DNA of 63,996 nucleotides, the filler included, from Elsinoe ampelina (lineage: Eukaryota), in assembly GCA_010093995.1 (NCBI GenBank). It is 4 parts of 4 records of this genome, joined end to end, with 100 filler letters (N's around TTAATTAATTAA, not from the genome) between each part and the next. Parts side by side here need not be neighbours in the genome. Positions count along the whole stretch, not along the records: positions 27,954 to 55,781 come from ML992558.1; 3 more parts are not named here. One strand, written 5' to 3'. Both the position numbers and the translations under genes were made by a program. Shown piece after piece: positions 8,684 through 62,661 of the stretch. Numbering within the stretch: the first letter of the stretch is position 1; the number at the start of each line of letters is the position of its first letter. The notes under the pieces are model-generated. The model searched no databases and was not told the origin of the DNA. It worked only from the letters and a program-made list of their open reading frames with translations.

Positions 8684-10536
8684 TGTGTCGGCTAGAGCTA
8701 CCGAGAGCCCGTCCGTTAAGATCAGAGGGGTTGCGAAGTGGTGGCCACCAATTAATGTAGGGTATGAATTTTGCTTGCGAAATATTGGAGCTCTTTGAAG
8801 TTTTTCGAGCTTCAAAAGACCAATTTCTCTCGAAGGTGTGGAGAAGCAGCCTTGGCAGAGCATTTTGCGTGTACGGTACTCTGGACTCGTGGCGGCGCAA
8901 GATCTTGGCAAATAGCCCCCTGGAGAGACGGGACCTTGACGCCCGTGGCCTCTTACGATGTACTCAAACTCGTTCACAACAGCACAGTCTGTCCCGACTT
9001 CATCATGAGGACATGAGCGCCTTGCAGCCGAGTATCGACTTCGAAAACGCCTCATGATGTCCTCATATGGCTGAATGTGCTGCTGGAACGGAGAATCAGA
9101 TCGACTCGGCCTCTAGTCAGCCAAGGAACCACCTCGAACGGGAATGAGGGTCCCATTAAAATGGAATACAGCTGAGCACCTCTGATGCGACAATATGCAA
9201 AAATCTATGTAGCTGGTAAGTACGACCCTGACATTTACAGTCTCTGCTGTTTCCTCTCTCCACTCCCCCTGCAGAGCACATTGGGCAGGATGAAAGGGCT
9301 CCAGTTTTGCATCATCATGTAGGTCCCAATCGAGTTGGCAGACTGGCTGGCCATTCAAAAGTAACGAGCTAGCTCAAGCCACGGTGCGAAGACTGTACGT
9401 CGTCTGATGAGTGGAGGCTGGATAGGTTGTGGTCATTGCAGAACTACCAATTTCGGTTCCTATCGACACATCTGGAATGACGAGTCCATGGATCATCTCC
9501 ATCACGACGGACGTGGTCGACGAGTTCGACAATCACATCCCCCTTTGTGTTGCGATTGCTCTCTCGAAACAGATTGTGGCAGCAACCAACGTTGCGTCCA
9601 CATTCATTGCCATCCGTAGTCTCCATGGAGTCGACGATCAGCTTAGTCGCATCTCGATCGTCCAGCTTGGCTCGAGGTGCCTTCTCGGACCGGCCGTGGG
9701 CATCTTGACATCTGGTCGAGAGGAGTGGGGCTGGCAGGTAGTCGTGTTTTTCGATCGCCTGCATGCTGTTCAAGATCAGCAGTAGTGCCGCACCTCGACA
9801 AGCTACGACTCTCGCACGATTATGAGCAGGAACGACTGTAGTAGCATCATCATCAGGAAAATCAAGCCAGCGACTGCTTCCTCTCGCATACTCGGTACAT
9901 TTCCAAGCTGTCTAGCGACTTCGATTATGCACGTTGTCGGTCCGAGAACAATCAAATCGATGCCACTCAGGACTTCAAGCACCAATGAGAAATTTTATTG
10001 CCAGGCTCGCTGCAACAAATTCTTCCACATGACCTTGGTCGATCATTTTAGAATTTGACCAGAAGCGACCCTAGTGCAACCAAGTGGCGCCATCACGTCG
10101 GCGGTGCCTGCCAAGCCTGCAGCCCCGACCTCATCTCTCACTCCCCCACGGAGGTTTCCCCGCAGCCGCAGACTTCCATGCCAGGCATGCCCTTTCGAGA
10201 GGACTTCCATTCGCTTTAAACTTTTATTCTCCGGAAGCGCATCACCGCTTCGAGTACGTTGGCAACCTTGACCTTCCAGACAAAGCGTTTGATCGCGTAA
10301 GCACGACTCATGACACGCTTATGGCCCGACATGGTCCATCTCACATGCGGCACCACACCCACTCATGATCGCGTTAGGTCACAATACAGATACCCACCCT
10401 GTAAAGCGTCATGTCCACCGACTCGAATATCGCGCAGCGTAAGTCGCACAAAGGTGCCGTCCCTATAAAGCCTTCGAACCATCTCATACCTGCTCAATCC
10501 ATCTCCTTCACAGTCCACCACCCCAGACCACCCATC

Positions 10537-20207: not shown

Positions 20208-21953
20208 ATGAGCGGCGGGGTCCCCATTGCAGTCATGGTCAGCGAAGGGCCTGTTGCAGCAAGCCCAACGCCTCCACCACTTGCGTCGGACATTACAAGC
20301 GCCTCACATAATCTGCCGCCGGAATTAAGACGAATACCACATACCAGAGCCGGGCTTCAGAAAGGTCAGGGCTCATCGGGTCTCCAAAGAAGGTTTCGGA
20401 ATTACATCAGTGGTCGGCGGAAATTGCCTGTCTTTCCCAGGGCATTTCTTACGGGGCCCGCCAGGAAATCGGACTCCAATGTGATACAGAAGTATGGTTC
20501 AACGACAGAGATATTCAGGTTGATGAAGACCATGACGATCACCAAGGCCCTTGTAACCTTTTACCAGAAGCATCTACCTGGTCTCCGGCTCGATAGTGGC
20601 ATGTCGATGAGGGAACTCTTGAAGAAACTTCATCTGGTCGACCCTGACGAAGGGACTGAATTTGCGGTCGACGCTCCATGGATGACAACCTACTTGGAGT
20701 GGCAAGACATTGCACACAAGCGTCCCAAAGCCTCGGTGGAATGGCTACCAATGAGGAAGCGAAAGAGAGCGAGTTACCCCACGGATACAAAACGTCGACG
20801 TACAGGCGATGATACCGCTCGTCATAGTATTACTCGAGGGGTCGAACAGTTCGCTGATGATTCGTATCATGGGTCGGACACCGATGAAGAAGTAGACAAT
20901 GCGTTCCCCACGGTCAGACAGCCATTGCTGAGGGACAACATCACGGTCACCCACAACACGATACATCCAAACCACGATAGATCCACACCTGAATCACCAG
21001 TATATGATCATGTGCCGGACCTAGGTCACCGCAGAAGCGAAACATTGAGTCCAACCCACCAAATCGACGAAGCACCACGCCAGGCTCCATCGTCCTCTAC
21101 ATCTACCACGCCATGGTCTCGAAGATCTCCAAGATTACCAATCTTCTTCGCAGGCGAGGGCCGGGACATCAACACCTACAATTTGAGCATAATTGAGAAA
21201 TACTGCTGCAATGAACGCAACCTTTCCAGGGTTCTTCCCGCAGATCTGCAACGTTATATCGCCATGGCCGCATTATTGGCGGAGACAGACCATGGAAGAA
21301 GCCACAAGCATTTGCACCTCTACATAATGTGGCTGAATGACTGGCTGGACACGAATCTTTCAGCAATGGAGCAGCTACAGGAAGCAGAATTCCGCATTTG
21401 CCCTTTCGATGATTATCCTGACGATTGTCAGGCGTACATCAGGACATTCTTTAACAATACATCGTCGGAAAGAGACCAGGAAATTGCGTTTGGTGATCAA
21501 ATCAAGACACTTGCTGCCGGTCAGCTGGTTGATCCAGAGATCTTGTGTACTAGCGACAAGCTTCTGAACTTCGACAAGTCTCAGCTAGCAGAGATGACAA
21601 GGCTAGTAACGAATATAGATGAGAACGCCGATCTCATCTTCTCTCAAGCAGATCTGGATTTTATTGCGGACCAATATCAAATACCGCATCACCTCCGGAC
21701 TATGGATGAAGAGTTGAAAGGCAGCAGGATTCGCATGCTCAATACACTACTACATCAAGGGACACAGCTTCCCCACGGCCGATGTCTGTATCGTACGTAC
21801 TGTGAGTGGGCTTTCAAGTTTGCCCAATGTGTTTGCGAGAATTACCAAGAGATGGTACATGTTTTAGACGCGGACGACGACGGTCGTGGTGAGATTAGTA
21901 GGATGGCAATCATGGGTGCTTATTTCGTGTTGAAGACGTCGATGCAGCAATGA
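20208..21953 (+). CDS. Orphan 581-aa protein, tandem paralogue A
   Basis: Long intronless ORF; colinear motifs shared with 22300-24045; basic NLS-like MRKRKR/KRRR. Confidence 0.8.
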   Translation: MSGGVPIAVMVSEGPVAASPTPPPLASDITSASHNLPPELRRIPHTRAGLQKGQGSSGLQRRFRNYISGRRKLPVFPRAFLTGPARKSDSNVIQKYGSTTEIFRLMKTMTITKALVTFYQKHLPGLRLDSGMSMRELLKKLHLVDPDEGTEFAVDAPWMTTYLEWQDIAHKRPKASVEWLPMRKRKRASYPTDTKRRRTGDDTARHSITRGVEQFADDSYHGSDTDEEVDNAFPTVRQPLLRDNITVTHNTIHPNHDRSTPESPVYDHVPDLGHRRSETLSPTHQIDEAPRQAPSSSTSTTPWSRRSPRLPIFFAGEGRDINTYNLSIIEKYCCNERNLSRVLPADLQRYIAMAALLAETDHGRSHKHLHLYIMWLNDWLDTNLSAMEQLQEAEFRICPFDDYPDDCQAYIRTFFNNTSSERDQEIAFGDQIKTLAAGQLVDPEILCTSDKLLNFDKSQLAEMTRLVTNIDENADLIFSQADLDFIADQYQIPHHLRTMDEELKGSRIRMLNTLLHQGTQLPHGRCLYRTYCEWAFKFAQCVCENYQEMVHVLDADDDGRGEISRMAIMGAYFVLKTSMQQ

Positions 21954-22299: not shown

Positions 22300-24045
22300 A
22301 TGGCAACGTCTCAACAAGCATCGAAAAGTACCACGGGCATCACCTTGCGCCTCCCAGACATCCTCAAGACCGTCCCAGATCCAACATCATGGACGACCCT
22401 CACTGCAAAGCAGAAGTGTGCCTGGACGAAATGGCAGAAGCGACTTGCTGATGTCCTGGCTCTGGACTCTCCAGTAATAATTCCCTACATGTTCTTACAG
22501 GGAGTCGGCCAACGGCCCAATGGCCTCAATCAACGACACAAGGATGCTATGTTGGCGAATATATGTGCCATGCCATTTTTCGAGGCACTGAAGCTGGCAT
22601 TCGACGACAAGCTGTCTAAGATATCGACGCACGCGATGACTCGACCTGGTGAAGTTGCAGCTGCATTGATGCTCGAGGATCCATTCGCAGAAACTCCACT
22701 GGCCATTGACGGACCGTGGATGACTGCATTCTTGGACTGGCAATACACCGCATGCAAAACACCCAAGGACGAGATTGAGACAATTTCTGAGGAGGAACAC
22801 ACTCGTCTGATGAATCTCAACAAAGCTCGTCCTGTTCATACCCGTCGTACCTCGAAAAGGTCCTTGACTGACAGCGACGATGAGGATTCGGATGATGAGA
22901 CGCCACTCGTAAAGGTCAGACGAGTGCTCAGAAAGCGACATCGAATCGAAGAAGAAGGTGATGAAGATGTGCCAGAAGAATCGGCAGACGACGTGTCCCC
23001 GAGATACATCCAAGATGAAAGCGACAGTATGATCAAGAAGCCAACCCTGCATCGTCAGTCGAATGCCTCGGTCTCGACATCAAGGAGCGGGACACTGTCA
23101 AATCATGTGCGCATAATATCCCCATCGACCCTTGCTAAGATCAGTCACGACAATGCGAGAGTGAGCATCTCGGAACTCCTCAACGTCAAGAACAACAACT
23201 ACCACAGTGGTTGGCGTCGCTTTCCGGGACCATTCAAGGGCAAATCCGAGGAGGTCATTGGTGTCAACTTGAGTTTGCTCAAGGCCCTCGCTCTTCAGCA
23301 TGCCGGTTCTTCGCAATTCCATCCCCGCGATCTCGAAAGATACGTCAGGCTTGCAGATGGATATTACGACGGTGACTACTCCACGGACTTCGCTGTTCAA
23401 CATCTGGACATCTTCACTATGCTGCCCGCATTCTCAGAGACTCTCCGCAAGAGAGCTGACACCAATCAAATCAAGATGAAAGAGGATGAGCACGCCAATT
23501 TCGCGATTGATCTCTTTGCCGAGCTTCCTGATCATTGTCAATCATATGTCGTGAAAACGCTCGGTCGCTCCGAACTCACACGTCAAGAAAAGATGCTCGT
23601 CGGTGATTCCATCAAAACACTACCACTTACCGAAGAAGGGATCGACATTTCCCTTATCACCATGGACACGCCCCAATTCTCGACTCTGGAGTTGGAGAAG
23701 ATGCTCGAGACAACCAAGAGGAATCTCCTCCTCGGAACTTCCGATATGACACTGGATCCGGCCCATATCCTGAGCAAATATGACATCGACATGCCATCCG
23801 GTGAACGCTTCTCCCACAGCTACATTGGTGGACTCCTCAGTCACGTTCTGTCTGGTGAATCTGGACAACAGCTTATCTACAATTATTGCGTGTGGTCTGT
23901 CGAGTTTGCGAAACAGATCGAGCGCGGATTTGGCGAGGTCAAGCGCTTCAAAGGGTTCCTGGGAAGTGCCGACTACGAGGAGATGAAGCTGGCGATTGTG
24001 TATGCCTATGCGACCTTGAGCGAAAAGCTTGAGGCAAGCAAATGA
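22300..24045 (+). CDS. Orphan 581-aa protein, tandem paralogue B
   Basis: Long intronless ORF; AIDGPWMTAFLDWQ matches AVDAPWMTTYLEWQ of paralogue A, among other blocks; basic RRVLRKRHR. Confidence 0.8.
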   Translation: MATSQQASKSTTGITLRLPDILKTVPDPTSWTTLTAKQKCAWTKWQKRLADVLALDSPVIIPYMFLQGVGQRPNGLNQRHKDAMLANICAMPFFEALKLAFDDKLSKISTHAMTRPGEVAAALMLEDPFAETPLAIDGPWMTAFLDWQYTACKTPKDEIETISEEEHTRLMNLNKARPVHTRRTSKRSLTDSDDEDSDDETPLVKVRRVLRKRHRIEEEGDEDVPEESADDVSPRYIQDESDSMIKKPTLHRQSNASVSTSRSGTLSNHVRIISPSTLAKISHDNARVSISELLNVKNNNYHSGWRRFPGPFKGKSEEVIGVNLSLLKALALQHAGSSQFHPRDLERYVRLADGYYDGDYSTDFAVQHLDIFTMLPAFSETLRKRADTNQIKMKEDEHANFAIDLFAELPDHCQSYVVKTLGRSELTRQEKMLVGDSIKTLPLTEEGIDISLITMDTPQFSTLELEKMLETTKRNLLLGTSDMTLDPAHILSKYDIDMPSGERFSHSYIGGLLSHVLSGESGQQLIYNYCVWSVEFAKQIERGFGEVKRFKGFLGSADYEEMKLAIVYAYATLSEKLEASK

Positions 24046-27853: not shown

Positions 27854-27953
27854 NNNNNNNNNNNNNNNNNNNNNNNNNNNNNNNNNNNNNNNNNNNNTTA
27901 ATTAATTAANNNNNNNNNNNNNNNNNNNNNNNNNNNNNNNNNNNNNNNNNNNN
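27854..27953. other. Artificial contig linker (N-run/TTAATTAATTAA/N-run)
   Basis: Identical 100-nt all-frame-stop linker recurs at 55782 and 62562. Confidence 0.97.
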
Positions 27954-28282
27954 ACTAATACACGTTAAAATATCAAAAAACACAAAAATTTCACGAAAAG
28001 TCACGTTGTAATTACTATACTCTAAAGAGTATAGTATTAACCCACTCGACCACCCTAGTATAGTCTAAATAGCCTTTAGCTAGAAGGAACTCTATGTTAG
28101 CTAATTTAGCTAGAGTAATTCGATAGTTTACTATACTAGCTATTATATCTTTTTTTAGCTTCAAAAATCAAGCAATTAACAATAATTACAACTACAATCT
28201 ATCTAGACTTCTGGCTAGCCAAATTTGGTGATGCAACGTCTTAAACGATCACGCCAAGCCTAGGGGTGGCTCGTTTGAACTG
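27954..28282. mobile_element. RIP-degenerate terminus of a Tc1/mariner-like DNA transposon
   Basis: AT- and TpA-rich. The reverse complement begins CAGTTCAAACGAGCCACCCC.AGGCTTGGCG and resembles 62662-62820, the end of the transposase-bearing element. Confidence 0.65.
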
Positions 28283-28610
28283 AAAAGCCCTGTAAACGCT
28301 TCTGCTATAGCTCACGGCAGCCAAAAAGCCCACGCGTCTTTGACAGCGGGCTGCCAGCTCCCTGAAACCTGGCACATCGCGAGTTGCGAAACTGGCTATT
28401 CCGCTTGGAGAGACACAGTGCGTGATGAGGCGTCGCTAGTGCATGGTGGTGATTTCCATGCGCCTGATTTCGACAAGACGGGGATCGTGATCAGGATTGC
28501 GTGCATGGTGGGTGTGAGCTTTTCGATTCTTCTCGGACTGCATCTCTTCTTCTGTTTGTTCAGCACTTCTTGTCACAGGGAGAGTGTACAGCATCTCCAG
28601 ACCATTCACA

Positions 28611-29522
28611 ATGAGGTCGATATCATTACTGTTGCCGTGGCTGGCACTCGTGTCTGCGCAGAGTCTCACATCCTCCGACGGTTATGTTGGCTACAACCTC
28701 GAAGTCACCGGCGATGGCGAATCAGCCGCCTATGAGACAGCCAACACGGACACGAACAACAACACAGCATACACCCCTCCGGACGTCTTTCTCAACGCCA
28801 CTGCCAGCGTCGGCGAGATCAGCATCGGCGTCCAAAACCTCTCAGCCAAGATCAACGTCGACGCCCAAGTCCTCGGCCTCCTCAATTTCGGCGCAGGAGT
28901 CGACCTCTCCATCAACCGCGTAGACCTGATCATCCAGAACGTCAGCGCTCGCGTCCTCCTCGAAGCCCGCCTCGGCAACCTAGTCACCATGATCGACGAC
29001 GTGCTCGACTCCATCGACCTCAACCCACTGCTCGTCTCCCTCGGCCGCACACTCGAGAACGTAGCAGACGGCGTGGGCGACGCTCTCGACGGTGCACTGG
29101 GCGGCGGCTCCACTGGCTCTGGGTCCGGCTCCGGCGCCTCAAACTTGACTGCTCGCTCTGTCCAAACTGTGCTCGACGAGCCGGACAACATCTTGTACTC
29201 TGTCAACGACTACTCGGGCGACACGCACACGAACCGCAAGCTGGAGAACAACGGCGATATCGTGGATCAGTTCCTCGATAACGATGGGCGGGTCAGGAGC
29301 CAGACCACCGTCGGCTCGTATGCCACTGACTTTACCTTTACTGGCCAAGAGAACGAGGTTGTAGTTGATGGCCAGACGTTTAGGTCGAGGGAGTACACGT
29401 ATAAGCCGTTCATCGGGCTTAATATCGTCAGCTATATCTACTTCGATGCGGACGATACTGTGGTCAAGGCGAGAGTGTTTAGTGAGGGTTCGGCGGGTGG
29501 CACCAGCACCATCTCGAATTAG
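28611..29522 (+). CDS. Secreted conserved hypothetical protein
   Basis: Signal peptide MRSISLLLPWLALVSAQ; beta-rich PDVFLNA...LLEARLGNLV domain, Gly/Ser linker, second domain; intronless with coding-like codon usage. Confidence 0.8.
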   Translation: MRSISLLLPWLALVSAQSLTSSDGYVGYNLEVTGDGESAAYETANTDTNNNTAYTPPDVFLNATASVGEISIGVQNLSAKINVDAQVLGLLNFGAGVDLSINRVDLIIQNVSARVLLEARLGNLVTMIDDVLDSIDLNPLLVSLGRTLENVADGVGDALDGALGGGSTGSGSGSGASNLTARSVQTVLDEPDNILYSVNDYSGDTHTNRKLENNGDIVDQFLDNDGRVRSQTTVGSYATDFTFTGQENEVVVDGQTFRSREYTYKPFIGLNIVSYIYFDADDTVVKARVFSEGSAGGTSTISN

Positions 29523-29630
29523 ACATGAGTATTAGCGTAAGCATTAAACGACAGTATATCCCCAACAGCCATGAGTCCAGTCGTGATAGTGCAACAAAAG
29601 CGGGATCTCTTGTGGCACGAAACATTGATA

Positions 29631-30128
29631 TCATGACAATCCGTATTCCACTTTTCTCGTTCCAACGTTGCGTACTTTCGGGTTCGCATCTCGTCCACTT
29701 ATCATCTGCTGTGATTGGTAACTTGTGACATACCGTCCGTCTTTTGTATGCGGCAGCACCCTGCTGACTTCATCTGCGCGACGAAATCCATGCCGGTCGT
29801 CCTCGGGGTGGTAGATCACCCCTCTTATGTTCTTATCACGATCTGTGATTGCCCGCGCATATCCCTTGGGGACTCTTTTGCCGTCTGGGCCGATAGCGTG
29901 GCCCCCGCGGGTCTGTCGCTCGTACGGATACTTCTGAGCCGGAAACTCATAGAGACTGGTGTTGGTACCGAAGAGACCTTCGCCGTCGTGATAGCGGTGG
30001 GGAAAGCCTCTGCTCTTGGCTATCATGGTGGGATCGATGAGGGGCCCTTCGTCCAAGGCTCGTTGCAATTCGGACGTCCTATGAGGTAGCGGACCTGGAC
30101 CGATTTCTGGACGATGCAGTCGATACAT
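29631..30128 (-). CDS. RNase T1/N1/ribotoxin-fold ribonuclease-like protein without signal peptide; possible upstream exon via intron 30138-30183 (start 30312)
   Basis: FPHRYHDGEG...LYEFP...GYARAI...GVIYH...GF reproduces the His-Glu-Arg-His catalytic order of RNase T1 (YPH, EWP, DRV, ITH). Confidence 0.7.
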   Translation of the reverse strand: MYRLHRPEIGPGPLPHRTSELQRALDEGPLIDPTMIAKSRGFPHRYHDGEGLFGTNTSLYEFPAQKYPYERQTRGGHAIGPDGKRVPKGYARAITDRDKNIRGVIYHPEDDRHGFRRADEVSRVLPHTKDGRYVTSYQSQQMISGRDANPKVRNVGTRKVEYGLS

Positions 30129-30883
30129 TTCAGGCTCCTGTTGGAATGAGAGGAGTCGGAGGAATGTGGGTCATTCTACTCACCCCAGCCCATCCCAGCA
30201 ATATTGACGTAGTATGGTCGGTACAGCAGGGATCGTAGAGGGATCGAGGACTTTGGAATGAACGAATTGCTTGCCTTTGTGAGAGACCTACCAGCATACC
30301 ACGACTCATCATATACCAAGTACGCATTCAGCTCAGACGCCGCAGACAAATATAGCTGTAACGATAGGCGCGCAGTCGCACATGAAATTGACTTGATGTG
30401 TGTGCGAGGGGAGCGTGAAACAACTCAAAAGGAAGGCGGGCTGCTTTCACCCATAGGTTCATGACCATGTCATGCAAGAACAAAGTGATAAGGAGAGCGG
30501 AACCATAGCGACTTACCACGTCAAAGGATACCTGTGCATGCATGATACGCTGACAAGTGATAAAATCGAGCGCAGGCAGTCTGACTCTGGTAGTTGTGAT
30601 AGCAGTCTCTGGTTGAGGAAGCGCGCGGCTGGCACACCCCATCTGAGGTGTGATTGGTCGATTTGCCGCTGAAGGCCCCCTGGCCCACTTGCTCACCTTC
30701 ACCATTGGCGCTCATTGTTTCTGCAATTGGGGCGCAAGCTCACTCCAAAACCCTACGCCTGCTGCGGAGAGAAAGGGACGCCAGCAATGCCACAGGACGC
30801 ATCATTGCTGAAGCAAAAGCCAGCTTCTGGAGTAACATAATAAATACTCCGCCACCAGTCTCCAAAGCTTTCCAATAACTACC

Positions 30884-31716
30884 ATGACCACCACATCTGA
30901 GGGGCTCCAGCTCAATGAAGCTGTACTTGACGACGAGGTCAGCTCTGCACCTTACTCGCCAGACCGACAAGTTCTCAATATCTTCCAGAGATACGTCCTA
31001 GCTACGGCCACCACCGATCGGCAAGAGATACTCGATGATCTTGTTGAATTCTATTATGAAGGATACGAGCAGATCCGAGTGATATCAACGGTCCTTCTTG
31101 GTCTCGCAGACATCACGCCCTACAATTCCCCTATCCATATGGAACTGGCGAAACTTGTGCAAGACTTCCGGCAGAATGAGAAGCGTAAAGCCAAATCAAC
31201 AGAGGTGCGTACGCTGCTTTCATTCCGATACCCAAGCTGACCATGTCCCAGTTTCCCAGACCAGAGTACGACTCATTCCTAGGCCAGCTGCTAGAAGACA
31301 TCTCCGACCAGAGGATCGAGCCGCTAGGTGCAGTGCAAGACGGCGTCGATCCGTTGGAATCCGCAAACTTCGACGCCTTTATCGCCCAGCTGTTCGCACT
31401 CGGCATAGACACAGCTTTGTGTCGATACGGTGAAGACGCGATGCACTGCGCATTTGTGTACGACCATTCCGATCAACAGCAGTCTCTCCACGATGCCTAC
31501 ATCATCACTGCGGCGCAATGGATCTTGGTCAGCTCCAGCGCTATGTACGCATCATGTCAGGAGAATCAGTGGACCCTCACGATGACCAAATGGGCGAAGT
31601 GGCGGGAAGGGTTTCTGAGCGTGGCAGAAGATGCACAGCATGGAGCAGAGTGCAGGAAGATTGCTGAGCGTGTAGCTGATATGATGGCTCTGGAGGAGAA
31701 AGCAGCGAAAGGCTGA
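30884..31716 (+). CDS. DUF3632-like helical protein; intron 31205-31251
   Basis: Phase-0 intron joins two ORFs; ANFDAFIAQL, AAQWI, W....WAKWREGF and C-terminal A...ADMM match the recalled DUF3632 pattern. Confidence 0.65.
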
Positions 31717-31927: not shown

Positions 31928-33849
31928 TCAATCCAGAGGAGCGCAACGACTGCGTTGTCTGATTGCTCGTCCGTACTTGTGGAAGACGTAAGGTACCGGG
32001 ACACAGATGCAGCTGATACAGCCAAGAATCGTTAAGGTGTAGTGTACTCCGAGGTTATGGTAGAACGAAATCTGTTATGAATTAGAATGCATGGCTAACG
32101 ATGAAAAGTCTGTGCGCTTACTCCGACTACTGTCATACCGCCTGCCACCACATATCGGATCAAAGTAACACTGGCCAGCGCACTCGCCGCATAAATCTCG
32201 TACGAGTCTATGATATACTGGTAGCTGCTGATGAAGACGCAGAGGATACCAAAGCCGAAGAAGGCAGATGCGGCGAGTGGTGACCGGATGCTGATATCCT
32301 CGTAGCTAGTCCATCCCATCCAGAGAATACTGATAGGGATGGCCGGTGACCCGTACATGGCGAATCTGAGCCTGAACTCGGGAGGCAAATGCGTGCCACC
32401 TTGTTCTTGAACAGCCCGAAGATTGACCTTTGCTTGGTGGCCAACGAGCGGCACTAGAGCTGTAGCACCGAAGAGACCCACGGCGATACCGACGAAGCAC
32501 AATCCTGTGACGCCTTGTGAGGTGCCGTGGATGTCTTGGAAGATGTACGTGAAGCCGTCCAAGAATGTGAAAAGGACGATATAAATAACTGTGAGGTATA
32601 ATGCAATAAGCAGAATGATCGGTTCAGTAGCAGTCAGAAGGAAAGGTCGGTAGAGTGCTCTACGGAGGCGTGTCAGGAAGTGCTCCTGTCGGACTTCTAC
32701 TTCTGCCCGGTAACGATCGTCTCCAGCGATGTCCCGAAGATGAGAAGCTTTCCACTTGAGGAGTATAGGCGAGAACGTTTCTGGCGCGAAGAGAATGACC
32801 AGGGTGAGCACCAGTCCAGATATGATTAGCGTAATCCATTCAACCCATCTCCATTGCGGTGCTGGTAGTTGGGAAGACCCCTGTGCGATATACCCACCCA
32901 TGACTGGTCCGAGCACAGGGCCAAGGAAAGCTGCATTGGCGAAGACTGGAAATGCGTATACTCTTTCGAATGGATCCCAGATGTCTGATATTGAACCACC
33001 GGCACAAGTCAGAGGCGTTGAGCCGAAGAAACCAGCCAGAAACCGAAATGCCAGTTGAGCGCCAATGTTCGGAGCGAGTGCAGACGCCATGATGAAGATC
33101 ATGTACAACGTGAGCGTGACAATGTAGACCGGGTTACGACCAACAGTCTCTGATATTGGCCCTGCAAACAGAGCGCCGCATCCGAAGCCGACCAGATATA
33201 GTCCAGTTGCAAGAGACTCGACCACTTCTGAGACACCAAATTCTTCCGCCGCTTGTGTCAATGCCATGCTGTCAATGGAGCTGGCGACTCCGACTACAAA
33301 GCCGATGGACGCGATCATTGACGTTATTCCGATTCTGTTCAAGTAGCTCCAATTGTGAGGGTTGGTCGGGTCGTGCTCATCATGATAGCCAACGATGAAG
33401 ACGTTCCCTTCACCACCTTCCTTTGTATGCCGCTTCCGGATGTGTATACCCGTCATGGCTTGTCCAAGTCGACCACCTACCGACTCTTGAGTAGTCAGCC
33501 TTGACAAGTGTCTCCGCATATCTTGGTCCGGCTCGTCTGGCTCATCGCTCGATTCCTCATCTGCTTCCTCCTCCGGCTCTTGTTTTGGTCCCCGTGTGGC
33601 ATCGTGGTCATCTGAGAAAGTGCCAATTGGTCGCCGCGAGTCGACAGCTGCTGAGGTGCTTGGAAGGTGTGAAGATGGACCCGTGCTAACTGCTTTCTCG
33701 GCATCAGTGTCGGAAGGAGCACCAACGTTACGATGGCGGCCAATGGTGTCGCTGAGATCTTGTCTTATTGCATGTATCTTGTCTTCTGCACGGTGTTGCT
33801 GCTGCTCTACGAGCTGTCGACATTGACGATACTATCGAAATGACTGCAT
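31928..33849 (-). CDS. MFS DHA1-type drug:H+ antiporter with premature TAG at codon 6 (33832-33834); 3' intron 32072-32121
   Basis: NPHNWS, GPISETVGRNPVY, PETF, PEFRL, YIIDSY motifs. Frame is open from just after the TAG to the intron; last exon ...LGVHYTLTILG...KYGRAIR ends at 31928. Confidence 0.85.
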
Positions 33850-36198: not shown

Positions 36199-37110
36199 AT
36201 GTCGGACTCCCTCGTGACGATGTTTTCCAGGCTGCGCCTTACAGACATTGACAAGAAGTCCGACAAGAAGCCCGAGAAGAAGCCCGAGAAGCTCGGCTTC
36301 CTTTTCCTGCCCCCCGAGCTGCGTCAGATGGTATACAAGCATGCTATACCTAGTGCCACCTACGTTCAAGTCCCGATCGGCCTCAATACCGTGCATGCTT
36401 CCTCAGACGATGACAAGCACACCACCCTGAGCCTCGCCAGCGCCTGCAGGACCACCCACGCCGAGTTCGCCCACTTGTACTACCAAAACAGCCTCTTCCT
36501 CTTCTGCGACAATGAGGACGCCCGCGCCTTCTTCGCCGCCGTGGGTCGCAACGCACCTCACGTCCGCCGCATTCAGATCCTCGATCCGATGCAGGAGAAC
36601 ATGACCCACTGCTTTATGCCTACAGTCTGGTCTTTCGCCGACAACCTGACTTCCATCCGCCTGGACTTCCCGGCTTCCGTTGTCGATAACGTTCGCCTCC
36701 CCCAGGCCGTCGCTCTGTGGATGACCAAGACCCGCTTTTGCCCAGAGGAGGGTGCCCACAAGTACTTCATCGGGGGCGGCCGTGTGCCCATGTCGATTCT
36801 GAAGCAAGTCATTGCCGGCACCTTCCCCGTCGGGCCCGTCGAGACACGCACTCATTTGGTGGAGAAGATGGTTTTCGCTGTCTGCCCTGGCCATGGCGAG
36901 GGGTCTATCTTCAAGGGCAAGCAGGGTGACCTGGATTGCAAGTGCCGTGGAGGAGTCAACTATCGTAAGCTTTACAAGGTGTTGTGGGAGATGTCGTGCT
37001 TGAGCAAGAGTGCTGTGCTCGATGTGTACGTCGGATATCGTAAGAAGTATGCAGATGGGCAATGGAGGATCAAGACTCTTGAGGAGGACGTTCCTGAGGA
37101 TGCGGAGTAG
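36199..37110 (+). CDS. F-box-like/Cys-knuckle family member 2 (intronless)
   Basis: FLFLPPELRQMVY; ACRTTHAEFAHLYY; CPGH...CKC. Confidence 0.82.
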   Translation: MSDSLVTMFSRLRLTDIDKKSDKKPEKKPEKLGFLFLPPELRQMVYKHAIPSATYVQVPIGLNTVHASSDDDKHTTLSLASACRTTHAEFAHLYYQNSLFLFCDNEDARAFFAAVGRNAPHVRRIQILDPMQENMTHCFMPTVWSFADNLTSIRLDFPASVVDNVRLPQAVALWMTKTRFCPEEGAHKYFIGGGRVPMSILKQVIAGTFPVGPVETRTHLVEKMVFAVCPGHGEGSIFKGKQGDLDCKCRGGVNYRKLYKVLWEMSCLSKSAVLDVYVGYRKKYADGQWRIKTLEEDVPEDAE

Positions 37111-37487
37111 GCTGGGTGCATTTTGATGTGGACGGCGATATACAGACACAAATGTCGGGATAGCTCAGGGTAGACACTACGACCAGCAGTCCCACATATC
37201 ATGGTTGATAGGCAAGCCATCATTCTATCATACATAATGCCGGTCACTAATAATATCAAAGAACTCACACAAAGAATCGTACTCTTTTGACAAAGCCATA
37301 CGTCAAGAACAAAGCAATGTGCCTACATGGAACAAAGTATCGGCGCCCTCTTCATGCGAGTCATTGTCTTGTCCAAGCGTATGACAAAGACTCAACACCG
37401 TCCTTGTCGCCTATCCCAACCTCTACAAATATGCCCCCAACCCTCACCCACTTACAGAACCACCTTTCTTTCTCTTTTCCCACCGTC

Positions 37488-38345
37488 ATGTCTCAATCAC
37501 TCATCAAGATGTTCTCCGACCTCACCATCACCGACAAGGTCCGTTTCCTTGACCTCCCTCCTGAAATCCGTCAGATGGTCTACAAGCATGCCGTCCCCGA
37601 CACGGTGTACGTCCGACAAGACCTGCCCGACTCTACCATGACCGCCACCAACCCAAACAACAACGACCACACCACGCTCAACATCGTCCGCGCCTGCAAG
37701 ACCACCCATGCCGAGTTTGCTCACATGTACTACGGGCGGACCGAGTTCTGGTTCACCGACGTGGAAGACGCCAACCTCTTCTTCGCCACCGTCGGCGCTA
37801 ACAGTGCACAGATCCGCCACGTCCGCATCGAACACCCCGACCCCCTCACCCCATCCCTCGGTTTGCAAAGCGTCAGTTGGGCCTTTACCGAGCACCTGAC
37901 GACCCTCCGTCTCGACCTCCCGGACTCCATCATCGACGACCCCAAGTTGCACAAAGCCCTCGCTCACTGGGTCATCAAGTCTGACTTCTGTCCCGAGAAG
38001 AAGTATATCAAGGCCATGTTGGGTGGTACGCTTCCTCTCGAGACCTTGAGGGAGATTGCCAATGGCAACCACCCGAAGGAGACTTGGACTTCTACGGTTG
38101 AGAAGTTGGTCTTGGCGCCTTGTCCTGGTCATGCCGAGGGGTCGATCTTCAAGGGGAACAAGGGTGATTATAACTGTCAGTGTCGCGGTGGTGTCAAGTA
38201 TCGCAAGGCCTACAAGGTGTTGTGGGAGTTGTCGTTCCTGGACAGGCACAATATCAGTGGTGTCATGCTCCACGGTAAGAGGTTCCAGGATGGTAAGTGG
38301 AGGGTCAAGAAACTCAAGGAGAAGGTCCCCAAGGATGCGGAGTAG
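37488..38345 (+). CDS. F-box-like/Cys-knuckle family member 3 (tandem duplicate of member 2)
   Basis: FLDLPPEIRQMVY; ACKTTHAEFAHMYY; CPGH...CQC; flanks also resemble member 2. Confidence 0.82.
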   Translation: MSQSLIKMFSDLTITDKVRFLDLPPEIRQMVYKHAVPDTVYVRQDLPDSTMTATNPNNNDHTTLNIVRACKTTHAEFAHMYYGRTEFWFTDVEDANLFFATVGANSAQIRHVRIEHPDPLTPSLGLQSVSWAFTEHLTTLRLDLPDSIIDDPKLHKALAHWVIKSDFCPEKKYIKAMLGGTLPLETLREIANGNHPKETWTSTVEKLVLAPCPGHAEGSIFKGNKGDYNCQCRGGVKYRKAYKVLWELSFLDRHNISGVMLHGKRFQDGKWRVKKLKEKVPKDAE

Positions 38346-38690
38346 ATTGGGTGCATCTTGATGTGGTGGTCGTGATATGGTGGCCCAGGTTGAAGACCTG
38401 GTAGCAGTTCGTCTGCTTTTTCCTATGTTCTGACAATGATGGTGGCAGATAGCTATACGGCTTTGAATGAGAAAACTTTCCCGACCAGTGTTCCAGCATC
38501 TGATGTGATATGGTCCGCGCTCGCCACACCGGTCATGTGCTTTCACATGCTCCTTGGCTCCTGCCGCAAATTCTCCGGTCGTGACTCTCAGTCTTTCACG
38601 AAAGCCTTTACCTCTTCTTCTTCATCACCACACTTCCATTCTCTCTTGCACGTCACCAAGTGACATCTATCTCTTGGTAGTCTTTTGATC

Positions 38691-39832
38691 ATGGCGATAG
38701 CACCTGGCGTATTTCGCAACTTGATGGAGAGGCAGGCGATCAGAAAGAGACAGCGTCCAATCGCTGGCACAGATACTGAAGTGACAGCATCACAGACCAC
38801 TCCGGATCAATCAAAGGGCGGTGTGACCATCCTCCAGGAGCCCGGACCGGGAGTCATGCGCAGCCTGCCTACCCTGCTCACCACTTACGGGACCCTCGCC
38901 ACTTCTTTCTCTCTGGCTACTTCAGCGGATCAGGGCTCCGAGGTAAGAGTTCACATAGGTGTGACCAAAGACTTGGACTCACATGCCTTCTAGTTCGACG
39001 CCAGTCGCAATGTCTATCGCCAAGTCGTTACGATTGAGTCTTCCATACCCTTCGAGGTCATTCCGGTTAGTGTCAACAGTGACATCCTATTTATTGTGGG
39101 GATACTGACTAGGATCAGAAACTCGTGAAGAAGCAGCAAGACAAGGACACTCACAACTTCACAATCCGCATGTGCCCGACCGACCGTAACTATTTCCGCT
39201 TCATGGATCTCCCGGCCGAAATCAGAGCCATGGTGCTGAGCCATGTGCTTGCCCGCAGGGAATTCATTCGCCTGGACTTCGACCGTGCTTCAAAAAAGTC
39301 TACCATGCCTCCAAGGGCATACATCGGCAACGACAATGCCATGCTCTTCGTCAACAAGTTCCTACACAACGAATCTGCCGGAATCTTCTATGGAATGAAC
39401 GAATTCCGTTTTGCGTCAACGACTATCTTTGTCCGCTTCATGAAAATGATCGGGAAGAATGCTGGCTTCATCGGTAACCTGAAGATTGAGTACAGATGTC
39501 TCACCAATGGATTTGAGGCCGCGGCGGCACTGTCAACTTGCCACTCGCTCGAGCGACTCCACTGGCCACTCTCTTGGTCTCAGCGCCACACTCACGAAGA
39601 GCAAGTGCAGGCGTTGTACAAAGCCCTGTGGTGTTACTTCGCTAGACATGCCAACTCATCGGGCGGAATTGAGGGTGGCATGGCTGGGATTTCCATCGGA
39701 TCATGTGGTCCGAGGCACGCCCAGTATGCCCCCAACCTGATCCGGCCTTCGGCGACGGACTGTGATGCATGCAAGTTCCGCAACGACCTCCGTGCACTAG
39801 CTCTCGGAGACTTCCCGGTGCAGAAGGAGTAG
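38691..39832 (+). CDS. F-box-like/Cys-knuckle family member 4; introns 38943-38993 and 39066-39112
   Basis: Phase-0 introns join three exons; FRFMDLPAEIRAMVL; IFYGMNEFRF; CGPRH...CDAC. Confidence 0.78.
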
Positions 39833-55781: not shown

Positions 55782-55881
55782 NNNNNNNNNNNNNNNNNNN
55801 NNNNNNNNNNNNNNNNNNNNNNNNNTTAATTAATTAANNNNNNNNNNNNNNNNNNNNNNNNNNNNNNNNNNNNNNNNNNNN
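55782..55881. other. Artificial contig linker
   Basis: N-run/TTAATTAATTAA/N-run. Confidence 0.97.
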
Positions 55882-56278
55882 TAGTTAGATACTTATATCT
55901 CTTTAATTAAGACTTATAAGCTAGTCTATTTACATAAACAATAGCTGCCTAGCTATTGTTAATAGTTACTATTGTTACTAGCAATTATAAGCCAAACTAA
56001 TAGTAAATTCTTACTAATGATTAGCTAACACTAACAATTATAAGCAATTATAAAGAGATAAAGTGATAAGCTAATTACTTTACTTACATATAACAGGACA
56101 GTTCTCTAGCTTTAGTAATCTATACTAGAGGGGGAGTGTTATAATAGAAGGCTAGTATAGCTTCTCTAGTACTAAAGAACTAGTACTGATAAGTCAGCGC
56201 ACGCACAGTAGATAAATCGGTTATTGTAACTCTCTGAATGAAACACACGTCTCTCGATCCGATTTGCTAGTTACAACA
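55882..56278 (+). mobile_element. Second copy of the LTR-retrotransposon 3' end (LTR 56137-56278)
   Basis: 55936-56278 is colinear with 1-343 and differs only by C/T and G/A transitions. Confidence 0.87.
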
Positions 56279-59441: not shown

Positions 59442-61120
59442 AGTGGGCAGTGGAATGAAATGGGTGAGGAAGTTGGGCATACATTATCACTGTTGCAGGC
59501 CATGCCTGACAACAAACTCGAGGTGCACGCTACATGTGGAGCTCACTTTGACGGTCCACGTTTCTCAACACAGGTAGATGCCTGTGTCCTCCTAGGGCGG
59601 CTGTCCAAAGGGTTCATTGGATGTTCGGATTCTATTTCCTATCCCGCACTCGTTGCTGTGCGCACTGCCTCATGGCCGGGGAGGAGGGGGGGAATTGAGC
59701 AATACCCAGAGATAGGAATCCGATACCGATTGGGCGTCGGATGTGTCCACCCAGACAATCAGCCTATGGTCCCCGACCTCATATGATCATCCCTCTCACT
59801 CATACCATGCTGGTAAGCTTTCGATACTTGTTTCGCTCCCATGGGTTAGAAGCAGTGAGAACGAGGTGAAAACTTTCGTTGTGGCAAAATTTTCACCTCT
59901 GTCAGGGCTGACCTGGCAGTCCTCGATATTTAAGATTGGCCTGAGGACGCCCTAATGGCCGAGGTACAGTCACCTCAAGTTTCTCAGGACCTCAGCAATA
60001 GTCAGATTCCACCCTCGCCCACCAATCATCAGCGATGCAGCCATTCGCTCTCTGCCTGCTCCTAGGCAGTCTCACTGGACTTGCCTCTGCTGGATGCTCT
60101 CTCTGTCCCCTCTATAGGTGAGAGTGATATTCTTTGCCCCCCTCCATGTATAGACGACGCCGAGAACATGGGAGACGGCAGCTCGACGTGCATTTTTCTC
60201 GTATCCGCGCAGACCACAGCATGTCAAGACACTGACGATCGCCAGCGGACGATGCACAGACGCAAAAGGGAAAAATTGCCGAGAAGGAACCGTGAAGTTC
60301 CAATATGTCGCCGCCCAGAATTATTGCTGCCGGGATCCAGGCTATACAACTGTCAAGTGCTGGAGCTCGTGTTCGACTTGACCACACCAAATCCCGAGGA
60401 TAGTTGGTGTCGAGGACTGGGCAATCTTTTCGTACACAACCTAAGACAATCCCACGCATAGAAAGAGCCAGCCCGGTGCGTCAGGCAAACAGACCCAACA
60501 TCATTCCCTCCTTCACAACTCATGAGCCATCGATCATCCGGTGAAGAGTAAAAGTCCTCTGCGCCAGCCTCTACTCCCACCATCTGCACCAGCTCCCAAG
60601 CCGACATCTGCCATGAACCAAGCCCCAACATGTTCCCTAGACGTCAGCCCTTCGTCTACCAAAAGGTGTACCCCAACGTTCACCTCCCCTTCAAAAGCCG
60701 CATACCAGCTCGTCCTCACGACGTCTCCCGATGCTTTCCTTTTCTCGATCTTCTCCCCCCATCCCTCCTCCATCACCCGGTCGTTCACTCCGTCTCACCT
60801 CCACTCATCTACGCCCCCACCCCATTCATCCTTTTCTACACCTCTCCTCCCACCGAGGCAATCGGTTGGGACTCGAGGCTCGTTCCTCCCCCTCTCCCTC
60901 TCCCCCTCTCCCTCTTCCCCTCTCCTCTCATCACTCATCACTCATCACTCCCATCATTGACCTCCCATCATTGTCCTCCCTCTTTTTCTTTTTCTTCTTC
61001 TTCTCATACTCCTCCAACTTGAAGAAAAGAAAACAGAAAGGTAGTGGGGAGGGAAGGGGTAGATATACCGCTTCTCTTCCTCTCCATGACCTGCATGAGA
61101 CAGGAGACGGGACTTTGGGC

Positions 61121-61290
61121 TGGCATAAGTGGGCATAAGTGGGCATGTGGGCGAACGGGAGGGCAGGTGGGCGAACGGGAGGGCACGGGAGGGCATGGGT
61201 GGGCATGGGTGGGCATGTGGGCGAACGGGAGGGTAGGTGGGGGCAGATGGGGGCAGGCGGGGCCAGGTGGGGGCAGGTGGGAACAGGTGG
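61121..61290. repeat. G-rich degenerate minisatellite (GGGCAnnnnn / GGGCGAACGGGA units, ~10-bp period)
   Basis: Repeated GGG tracts read directly. Confidence 0.8.
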
Positions 61291-62210
61291 TGCCTCGGGA
61301 GCGTATGAGAGGTGATGGGAGACATTCGGGGTGACATGGGCGGACAGGCAGAATCATGAAGAAGCATGACACGGGCAGGTTGAGCTGTCATGAGGGAGGG
61401 ATATAGGTTGCATGAGGAGAGGTAATGTGTAGGGCATGGCATGGAGTGGGAGACATGGGCATGCGAGGCAGGGGTCACGGGGCAGGAGTGGACGATGAGC
61501 ACGTGGGAGAGGGAGAGATGCGGCATTCATGCAGAGCAGGGAGGGGAGAGGCCGGTCTGCTTTTGGGGCGAGAGGGCGGAGAGATGGACTGTACGGGCGA
61601 GCAGTAGTTGGTCGACACATGGAAAAGAGTGTGGGGAGGCAACAAGAGGCATGAGATGTGTTGGCATGTTCAGCGTGGTAGGAAATGCACCATCATGCAA
61701 GTCAATGCATGTGCAGGAGGGAGTTTTGTGACGAGCAGGAGCAAGGAAGCCGGTTCATTAGCGGAAGAACGCGTGGATATCCAGGTGTGGGACCGGTTTG
61801 TGCCAGGAGAAGCACAAAAGGGCCGAAGAAAGCACGATGCCAAAGCGAGGACACACAAGGCTCATAGGAGAAGCTCCAAGTGCTGTACCAGTGGCACGAG
61901 ACAGTCGAGGTGATTGCAAGTGGTAGCAGTCAACCAGCAGTGTCACGGGAGTATGTCTGACACTCTGCAAACATGTTGAAGTTGTAAATTCGAAATCTCA
62001 TCGCAAGGGTATCAAGTCCTCTCTCTATCATACAATCGAAACTAGATCACAATCATCAGTCATGCATCTGACCTATCCTCCGGCCCCTCACATAGTAAAG
62101 CCCGTACAATCCACCATCCCATTCCCTCTATCCCTTCTTCCAGTTTTCCATCCAATGTCCTTTTCCTTCCCTACCATGCTCCCTTCCTCCCTTCCTCCCT
62201 TCCCCCCTTC

Positions 62211-62561: not shown

Positions 62562-62661
62562 NNNNNNNNNNNNNNNNNNNNNNNNNNNNNNNNNNNNNNN
62601 NNNNNTTAATTAATTAANNNNNNNNNNNNNNNNNNNNNNNNNNNNNNNNNNNNNNNNNNNN
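62562..62661. other. Artificial contig linker
   Basis: N-run/TTAATTAATTAA/N-run. Confidence 0.97.

Follow-up and report, generated by a model that had tools for sequence, protein, structure and literature searches.

Fungal ribonucleases (RNases) of the T1 family are textbook secreted enzymes and toxins, and those of the T1 type are both secreted and disulfide-bonded. A conserved family of such enzymes that would act inside the cell, lacks disulfides and often carries leaders resembling acylation sites is therefore unexpected, and one is led to ask how the producing cell withstands such an enzyme. A candidate member is encoded on the minus strand of the Elsinoe ampelina sequence analysed here (63,996 nucleotides in four parts joined from assembly GCA_010093995.1, hereafter the window), within positions 29631-31716, which belong to record ML992558.1; beside it, on the plus strand, lies a gene for a protein of the DUF3632 family. 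The initial annotation had regarded the two as a candidate toxin-antidote pair, a basic RNase neutralised by an acidic partner. We lean, if only slightly, towards a conserved two-gene module in which an intracellular T1-family RNase is accompanied by a DUF3632 protein dedicated to it, which lies over the catalytic face of the enzyme and holds it in check. With its conserved and co-transcribed neighbour, and a complex prediction run against controls, the pair gives this question a concrete answer that is cheap to test.

The 165-amino-acid open reading frame (ORF) that had been placed on the minus strand at 29631-30128 is present as claimed, with its ATG at 30128 and its stop codon at 29631-29633, and the whole T1-like domain lies inside it. 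It matches the ribonuclease N1/T1 family PF00545 with 32.6 bits (curated cut-off 24). A profile of 15 members of this RNase family matched RNase T1 among PDB sequences (E 7e-4), with an alignment in two blocks, 'ryPkkYnnrek.lf...lYEyp' and 'gytRtitDRnKnirGviYhp'. In this alignment H44 (codon 29997-29999), E61 (29946-29948), R92 (29853-29855) and H107 (29808-29810), all read from the minus strand, fall on RNase T1 positions 40, 58, 77 and 92, numbers that are in part visible in PDB titles. This agrees with the earlier statement that the four motifs FPH, YEFP, YAR and IYH are kept. E50 aligns to the guanine-binding Glu46 of T1, and the position is Glu in 27/36 aligned members. We conclude that the protein is an RNase of the T1/N1 family whose active site, as judged from its sequence, is apparently intact.

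When 1.84 billion cluster representatives were searched exhaustively with phmmer, no more than 41 proteins matched at E<=1e-3, and the named ones are all 'hypothetical' proteins from Ascomycota: Imshaugia aleurites, Usnea florida, Bogoriella megaspora, Aspergillus mulundensis, A. californicus, A. viridinutans, Phialemonium atrogriseum, Diaporthe batatas and Microdochium bolleyi. In an alignment of 36 members R92 is invariant (36/36) and H107 and E61 are kept in 34 and 32, respectively. Position 44 is His in 16 and Lys in 16, and the His40Lys mutant of T1 is labelled 'partially active' in a PDB title. The protein is strongly basic, with an isoelectric point (pI) of 9.79 and 28 Lys and Arg to 20 Asp and Glu in the 165-residue ORF; a pI of at least 9.3 is found in 32/36 members, and a Lys/Arg cluster ahead of the YP(H/K) motif recurs across the family. 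The long basic loop of the initial annotation is borne out, the stretch from E61 to R92 having 30 residues against 18 between E58 and R77 in T1 and a net charge of about +5. The segment between the E and R strands carries a motif, YPY..QN..G, that is specific to this family.

Structural comparison points to the same fold group. With the predicted RNase model, all 50 entries listed by VIA-align have the folds of T1, of ribotoxins or of the RNase-like RALPH effectors of powdery mildews, and RNase T1 is at the top (Z 8.2, root-mean-square deviation 3.4, 90/104 residues aligned). The best Foldseek match has an E-value of 4.5e-3, and a search of the ESM Atlas by structure gave one 'ribonuclease domain' cluster from Ascomycota. 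Searches of PADLOC and NCBIfam gave no match for either the RNase or the DUF3632 protein. It had been proposed that the RNase is closer to ribotoxins than to T1, and this did not find support, because the family profile matches 39 PDB sequences at E<=1, and these include RNases T1, Ms, F1, Po1 and He1 and no ribotoxin. By fold the two types are counted as tied by VIA-align (ribotoxin Z 7.2-7.7, with restrictocin at 7.7 and alpha-sarcin at 7.4, against 8.2 for T1), while Foldseek ranks the ribotoxins (E 0.12-0.19) below the T1-type RNases (E 0.0045-0.05).

Whether such an enzyme would leave the cell depends on the start of the protein, and so on the structure of its gene. Three sequencing runs from three studies (X1, X2 and X6) are informative about splicing; although they are not recorded as RNA, they contain it, since their contigs of this region are spliced. 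The last exon of the RNase gene (29631-30137, minus strand) is spanned by RNA contigs over 29502-30136. A 46-nucleotide intron upstream of it (30138-30183, minus strand, GTGAGT...CAACAG) is removed in X1 and X2, two of the three informative runs, and is kept in the X6 contig; the contig joint, 30136>30183, corresponds to CT..AC when the cut is moved by +1. The exon upstream (30184-30327, minus strand), which had been described as optional, is thus real at the RNA level and is reached by contigs to 30315 in X1 and to 30263 in X2. It is open throughout, and splicing joins it in frame to the RNase by way of Glu-Pro-Glu, giving products of 216, 211 or 210 amino acids from ATGs at 30327, 30312 or 30309. 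Any of the three may serve as start codon, the RNA contigs going no further than 30315 and so not reaching the ATG at 30327. The RNase is therefore probably a protein of 210-216 amino acids with an Arg/Ser-rich leader of 45-51 residues. That the protein is free of Cys holds for the 165-residue ORF, but not for the spliced product, whose leader carries two as a CC pair. Another ORF start, 'MGCASR...' at 30642 on the minus strand, was considered as a lipidation leader and taken as chance; it sits in a stretch without RNA coverage.

The leader has no signal-peptide-like hydrophobic core, its best 9-mer having a Kyte-Doolittle mean of 1.19, and by the same measure (a mean of 2.0 or more within the first ~38 residues, a crude hydropathy test rather than SignalP) a hydrophobic 9-mer is missing at the N-terminus in 47/49 RNase homologues. 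One of the two homologues that have such a 9-mer also has an internal MCFG at residue 79. These results agree with the earlier view that the RNase has no signal peptide. Among the 49 homologues eight begin with MC(F/L) and four with MGC, and such a motif is internal in two more. Four others (P0005, P0012, P0025 and P0031), known from ORF calls, start with 'MLT'; this is probably ATG-CTG-AC inside an intron branch site, because the annotated cluster mates of two of them, P0046 and P0051, begin with MCFG, and it follows that in this family the leader exon is systematically missed by automatic ORF calling. MGCxxS is the classical motif for myristoylation plus palmitoylation, and the MCFG and MGCG leaders of the relatives look like acylation sites. 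The family thus looks intracellular, and many of its members are probably held on the cytosolic face of membranes.

It could instead be that the long isoform is imported into mitochondria, the leader serving as presequence, and acts on organellar RNA, in which case a cytosolic DUF3632 protein would guard the precursor or be irrelevant. The in-frame upstream exon, spliced in two of the three informative runs, speaks for this, and the first 30 residues of the leader, with five Arg, no Asp or Glu, six Ser or Thr and a peak helical hydrophobic moment of 0.44, fit the likeness to a mitochondrial presequence that had been remarked on. However, the likeness is one of composition, the RNA contigs end before the first ATG, and the MCFG and MGCG leaders of the relatives are not presequence-like, so that we regard mitochondrial import as very unlikely.

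If the RNase stays within the cell, as we are inclined to think, its neighbour becomes of interest. The ORFs at 30884-31240 and 31243-31716 on the plus strand are two exons of a single DUF3632 gene. Exon 1 (30884-31204) has 107 codons and is covered by RNA contigs from 30812; its product is 44% identical over 77 amino acids to the N-terminus of P0053, an annotated full-length DUF3632 protein of Elsinoe australis (E 3e-23). It is followed by an intron of 47 nucleotides (31205-31251, GTGCGT...CCCAG), spliced in all three informative runs with a contig joint of 31202>31250 that corresponds to GT..AG borders when the cut is moved by +2. Exon 2 (31252-31716), of 154 codons and a stop codon, matches PF12311 with 33.7 bits (cut-off 23) and includes an acidic segment predicted to touch the RNase. 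The spliced protein has 261 amino acids and a pI of 4.45. Between its ATG (30884) and the RNase ATG at 30128 there are 755 bp, and the ATGs of the upstream RNase exon are 556-574 bp away; the divergent acidic DUF3632-like gene of the initial annotation is accordingly confirmed. Both genes are transcribed and spliced, as seen in contigs of X1, X2 and X6. The intergenic region between them (30328-30883), which has no RNA contig over 30431-30804, is probably a shared bidirectional promoter. As a separate observation, one X1 contig (30812-32372) extends from the DUF3632 gene past its 3' end and into that of a convergent gene for a major facilitator superfamily (MFS) transporter, and also splices a minus-strand intron at 32072-32121; since this contig spans both genes, either their transcripts overlap tail to tail or the assembler merged them.

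The arrangement was also looked for elsewhere. Scanned by pattern, JGI metagenome contigs yielded the two loci L001 and L002, of which L001 alone is informative. It comprises 20.3 kb of a 36-kb fungal metagenome contig and encodes an RNase homologue that is 37% identical to that of the window (PF00545, 31.1 bits). On the opposite strand is a DUF3632 gene (PF12311, 43.4 bits, cut-off 23) with its exon 1 just upstream, and among 65 ORFs of at least 90 amino acids this DUF3632 ORF is the sole other relevant one. The two ATGs, at 9848 for the RNase and 8926 for its neighbour, are divergent and 922 bp apart, compared with 755 bp in the window. RNase exon 1 encodes a 17-residue MCFG... leader and is followed by an intron (9899-9967, GTAAGT...CAG) that ends directly ahead of the conserved AYR motif, a position almost identical to that in the window, and the DUF3632 intron has the same position at both loci, before the '...(D/E)xF..L' helix. 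The DUF3632 proteins are about 30% identical. L001 is flanked by genes for AIP3/Bud6 and an NAD(P)-binding protein and the window pair by those for a secreted 303-amino-acid protein and the MFS transporter, and because these flanking genes differ, simple synteny does not explain the pairing. The linkage of a signal-less T1-like RNase with DUF3632, which the initial annotation had put forward for examination, thus recurs at both loci with readable flanks, the window and L001, a small sample. A third case may be that of P0002, the closest RNase homologue (55% identity), and P0054, a DUF3632 protein; each is on one Logan contig of 59987 bases, and we infer that the contig is the same. Scans of viral contigs (27 pattern stretches) and prokaryote genomes (33) gave no relative.

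Two observations on these loci stand apart from the linkage. The intergenic region of L001 contains a 122-bp tandem repeat of 3.2 copies with 81% matches (9149-9546), and nothing similar is present in the intergenic region of the window. In L002 the RNase homologue (406-709) shifts frame between 'GVAR' and 'TNPEY', and is either a frameshifted pseudogene or the result of an assembly error.

A prediction of the complex, suggested earlier as a way of checking the pair, bears on whether the two proteins could interact. It was run as three chains, the DUF3632 protein being split at the intron into its exon 1 and exon 2 products and the RNase being the scored partner. The interface score ipSAE between the RNase and DUF3632 was 0.65, 0.63 and 0.67, and that of the best of three controls was 0.00; the runs had at least 79% of contacts in common, with a confidence (pLDDT) of at least 59 for the partner. 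The mark used is reached by 51/78 solved complexes and by 2/108 mismatched pairs. On the RNase side the predicted interface involves residues 35-41, 72-75, 85-90, H107 and 111-114, and on the DUF3632 side residues 11-32 of exon 2, the acidic LLEDISDQRIEPLGAVQDGV segment, in which residues 15 and 18 would touch H107. The prediction therefore passes, with an acidic DUF3632 segment modelled on the catalytic His, and it supports binding of DUF3632 over the active-site face of the RNase. The DUF3632 relatives of this protein, a narrow subgroup represented by 15 profile-search matches, likewise have an acidic loop ahead of the VNYxAF helix; because this loop and the Lys/Arg cluster of the RNase both recur in relatives, charge complementarity is a feature of the two families.

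Several points weigh against a restrained and active RNase with a dedicated partner. Position 44 is Lys in about half of the aligned members, and E61 is replaced by Ala in 4/36. The AlphaFold2 model of the RNase is weak, with a mean pLDDT of 57. The complex job differs from its calibration in having three chains and in that alignments were unused, and in the tool's own test the mark was also reached by 7/44 neighbours drawn blindly. Adjacency is seen directly at only two loci, the third being a matter of equal contig size, and in L002 (2.35 kb) the relevant upstream flank is too short and the other ORFs have no Pfam match. None of the 15 matches of the DUF3632 profile search comes from the genomes with named RNase homologues (for example Aspergillus mulundensis, A. 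viridinutans, Diaporthe batatas and Imshaugia aleurites), nor is any on a contig equal in size to those of the RNase homologues P0003 and P0045. Finally, DUF3632 is a far larger family than the RNase family, 27 of the 30 nearest ESM Atlas clusters of the partner being DUF3632, and because of this most DUF3632 proteins cannot have this RNase as partner.

Some of these points would be expected if the genes were unrelated neighbours that have a promoter region in common by chance or through local synteny, the RNase being a minor or decaying intracellular paralogue of the secreted T1 enzymes. The small number of loci and the blindly drawn neighbours that pass the complex test are in keeping with this, as is the fact that DUF3632 is common in Ascomycota. 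Nevertheless the arrangement and both intron positions persist between two loci whose proteins have diverged to 37% and about 30% identity and whose flanks differ, the ipSAE of 0.65 is above the 0.34-0.59 of the four mismatched pairs that pass the calibration, the catalytic residues are kept family-wide and both genes are transcribed. If a genome is assumed to have ~10,000 genes, 50 of them for DUF3632 proteins, the chance of adjacency would be about 1%. We consider it decidedly unlikely that the two genes are unrelated.

The nature of the partner leads to another possibility, which is that the proteins do bind but DUF3632, instead of inhibiting the RNase, is a helical-repeat adaptor, chaperone or targeting subunit that brings it to certain RNAs or to a compartment; the RNase would then have a regulated housekeeping or stress role rather than that of a toxin. 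The model of P0053 is all-helical, with 10 helices and a mean pLDDT of 69 that exceeds 90 in the C-terminal half. Foldseek gave no match below E 0.27 with the DUF3632 model; VIA-align gave HEAT, ARM and MIF4G-type repeats, the best being eIF4G, Paip1 and importin with Z of 9.4-10.5, and rows of ARM/HEAT type are among the remaining ESM Atlas clusters. Barstar is not among the rows listed by Foldseek or VIA-align for the partner, which is all-helical and of 261-276 amino acids. In addition, the linkage and the predicted complex would fit any stable heterodimer. The repeat matches are, however, below the Z of about 13 from which VIA-align is meaningful for helical proteins, and the predicted contacts, which include H107 and the active-site loops, fit occlusion better than an adaptor bound at the back. 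An adaptor role thus seems to us unlikely, if less so than chance neighbourhood.

Restraint of the RNase by its neighbour might then proceed as follows. An intracellular, disulfide-free and strongly basic T1/N1 RNase would be made in the cell, and the acidic, all-helical DUF3632 protein would cover its catalytic face, so that the bound enzyme is kept inactive, or is at least controlled, inside the producing cell. The variable N-terminal leader, Arg/Ser-rich here and MCFG or MGCG in relatives, may set the location of the RNase. This assumes that DUF3632 binds in the cell and inhibits the enzyme and that the free RNase is active and does harm, all of which we infer. Such a system could serve the regulated destruction of RNA in stress, cell death or defence, or could protect the producer before the RNase is exported.

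A bolder proposal would be that the pair is a eukaryotic toxin-immunity module, in which the free RNase kills or arrests the cell, DUF3632 is its dedicated antidote, and the leaders park the RNase at membranes or direct it into vesicles to be exported. With the producer protected as by barstar, it might be used in regulated self-destruction, as in defence against mycoviruses or in allorecognition, or in attack on neighbours, and by extension the DUF3632 family could be general fungal binding or immunity proteins for different intracellular effectors. We hold this wider proposal to be improbable as it stands. Should the two genes act as toxin and antidote, they would be among the rare toxin-immunity modules of filamentous fungi that are made of proteins; such a pair could bear on cell death, on defence and on genetic conflict, and a compact tool for counter-selection might be made from it. 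Even a partner that does no more than restrain the RNase would give the first clue to the function of DUF3632, which is a large family in Ascomycota without a known role.

The surroundings of the pair were also considered. A transposon end had been reported about 1.4 kb from the RNase stop codon, and this was not upheld: what is there is an AT-rich patch next to a run of N (27854-27953), no copy of it is repeated elsewhere in the window, and no repeat family joins 27954-28300 to other window parts. The candidate roles of suicide defence, incompatibility or drive thus lack the transposon context that had been put forward for them. With the transposon context and the affinity to ribotoxins set aside, what stands of the earlier idea of a basic RNase neutralised by an acidic DUF3632 partner is the linkage, the transcription of both genes and, as a prediction, the complex. 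Between the AT-rich patch and the RNase gene is an expressed gene (28611-29522, plus strand, X1 contig) for the secreted 303-amino-acid protein mentioned above, which has a signal-peptide-like start, MRSISLLLPWLALVSAQS, and no Pfam match. The N blocks at 27854-27953, 55782-55881 and 62562-62661 each have a 44-12-44 layout with AT-rich DNA beside them, and positions 1-300 of the window are repeated at 55936-56235 (94%).

Otherwise the window holds what is usual for an Ascomycota chromosome, with genes for a dyskerin-type pseudouridine synthase, a class I tRNA synthetase, a sorting nexin, the MFS transporter and 2EXR proteins. Two tandem ORFs of 581 amino acids (20208-21953 and 22300-24045, plus strand) are 25% identical over 286 amino acids (E 4e-18) and have no Pfam match; they are an old tandem duplication of an unnamed family. 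Three adjacent genes with 2EXR/DUF7730 matches lie at 36199-39832 on the plus strand, and the first two are linked by DNA repeats that are 74% identical (36841-37142 with 38079-38377). A G-rich array of about 210 bp at 61097-61306 consists of degenerate 10-nucleotide units of the type GGGxGGGCAx.

Within the literature searched, neither a family of T1-like RNases inside fungal cells nor its link to DUF3632 appears to have been described. Searches found no intracellular fungal T1-like RNase and no RNase link or function for DUF3632; what they listed, also for RNase T1 combined with barstar, immunity proteins or toxin-antidote systems, was confined to RNase effectors that are secreted, toxins of bacteria and gene lists. 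In the passages of PMC7670438 that were searched a DUF3632 gene appears as a horizontally transferred marker, with no function given.

Comparison with known systems helps to place the pair. The partner is a member of DUF3632, being above the cut-off of PF12311 both in the window and in L001. The RNase has its fold group, its catalytic positions and the equivalent of Glu46 in common with RNases T1, Ms, F1, Po1 and He1 (PF00545), and its family differs from them in lacking a signal peptide and disulfide cysteines, in having an N-terminal leader exon and a strongly basic character, and in the 12 extra residues, with YPY..QN..G, between the E and R strands. With the fungal ribotoxins alpha-sarcin, restrictocin and hirsutellin A it shares the superfamily fold, basic charge and enlarged loops; unlike them, it has no Cys in the domain and no signal peptide. 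For the pair as a whole, the mammalian ribonuclease inhibitor, a cytosolic repeat-type protein that caps the basic RNase A, may be compared by analogy, the folds being unrelated on both sides (leucine-rich against helical repeats, RNase A against T1). Closest in outline is barnase-barstar, a bacterial RNase of the N1/T1 superfamily and its acidic intracellular inhibitor. As there, a basic RNase of this superfamily is encoded beside an acidic protein, the linkage is conserved, and the acidic partner is predicted to lie on the active-site face and to touch the general-acid His. In contrast to that system the partner is a 261-amino-acid all-helical DUF3632 protein, apparently of a new and unrelated fold, for which the rows listed include neither barstar nor any other solved inhibitor, the genes are those of a eukaryote and have introns, their transcription is divergent, and the RNase is apparently not secreted.

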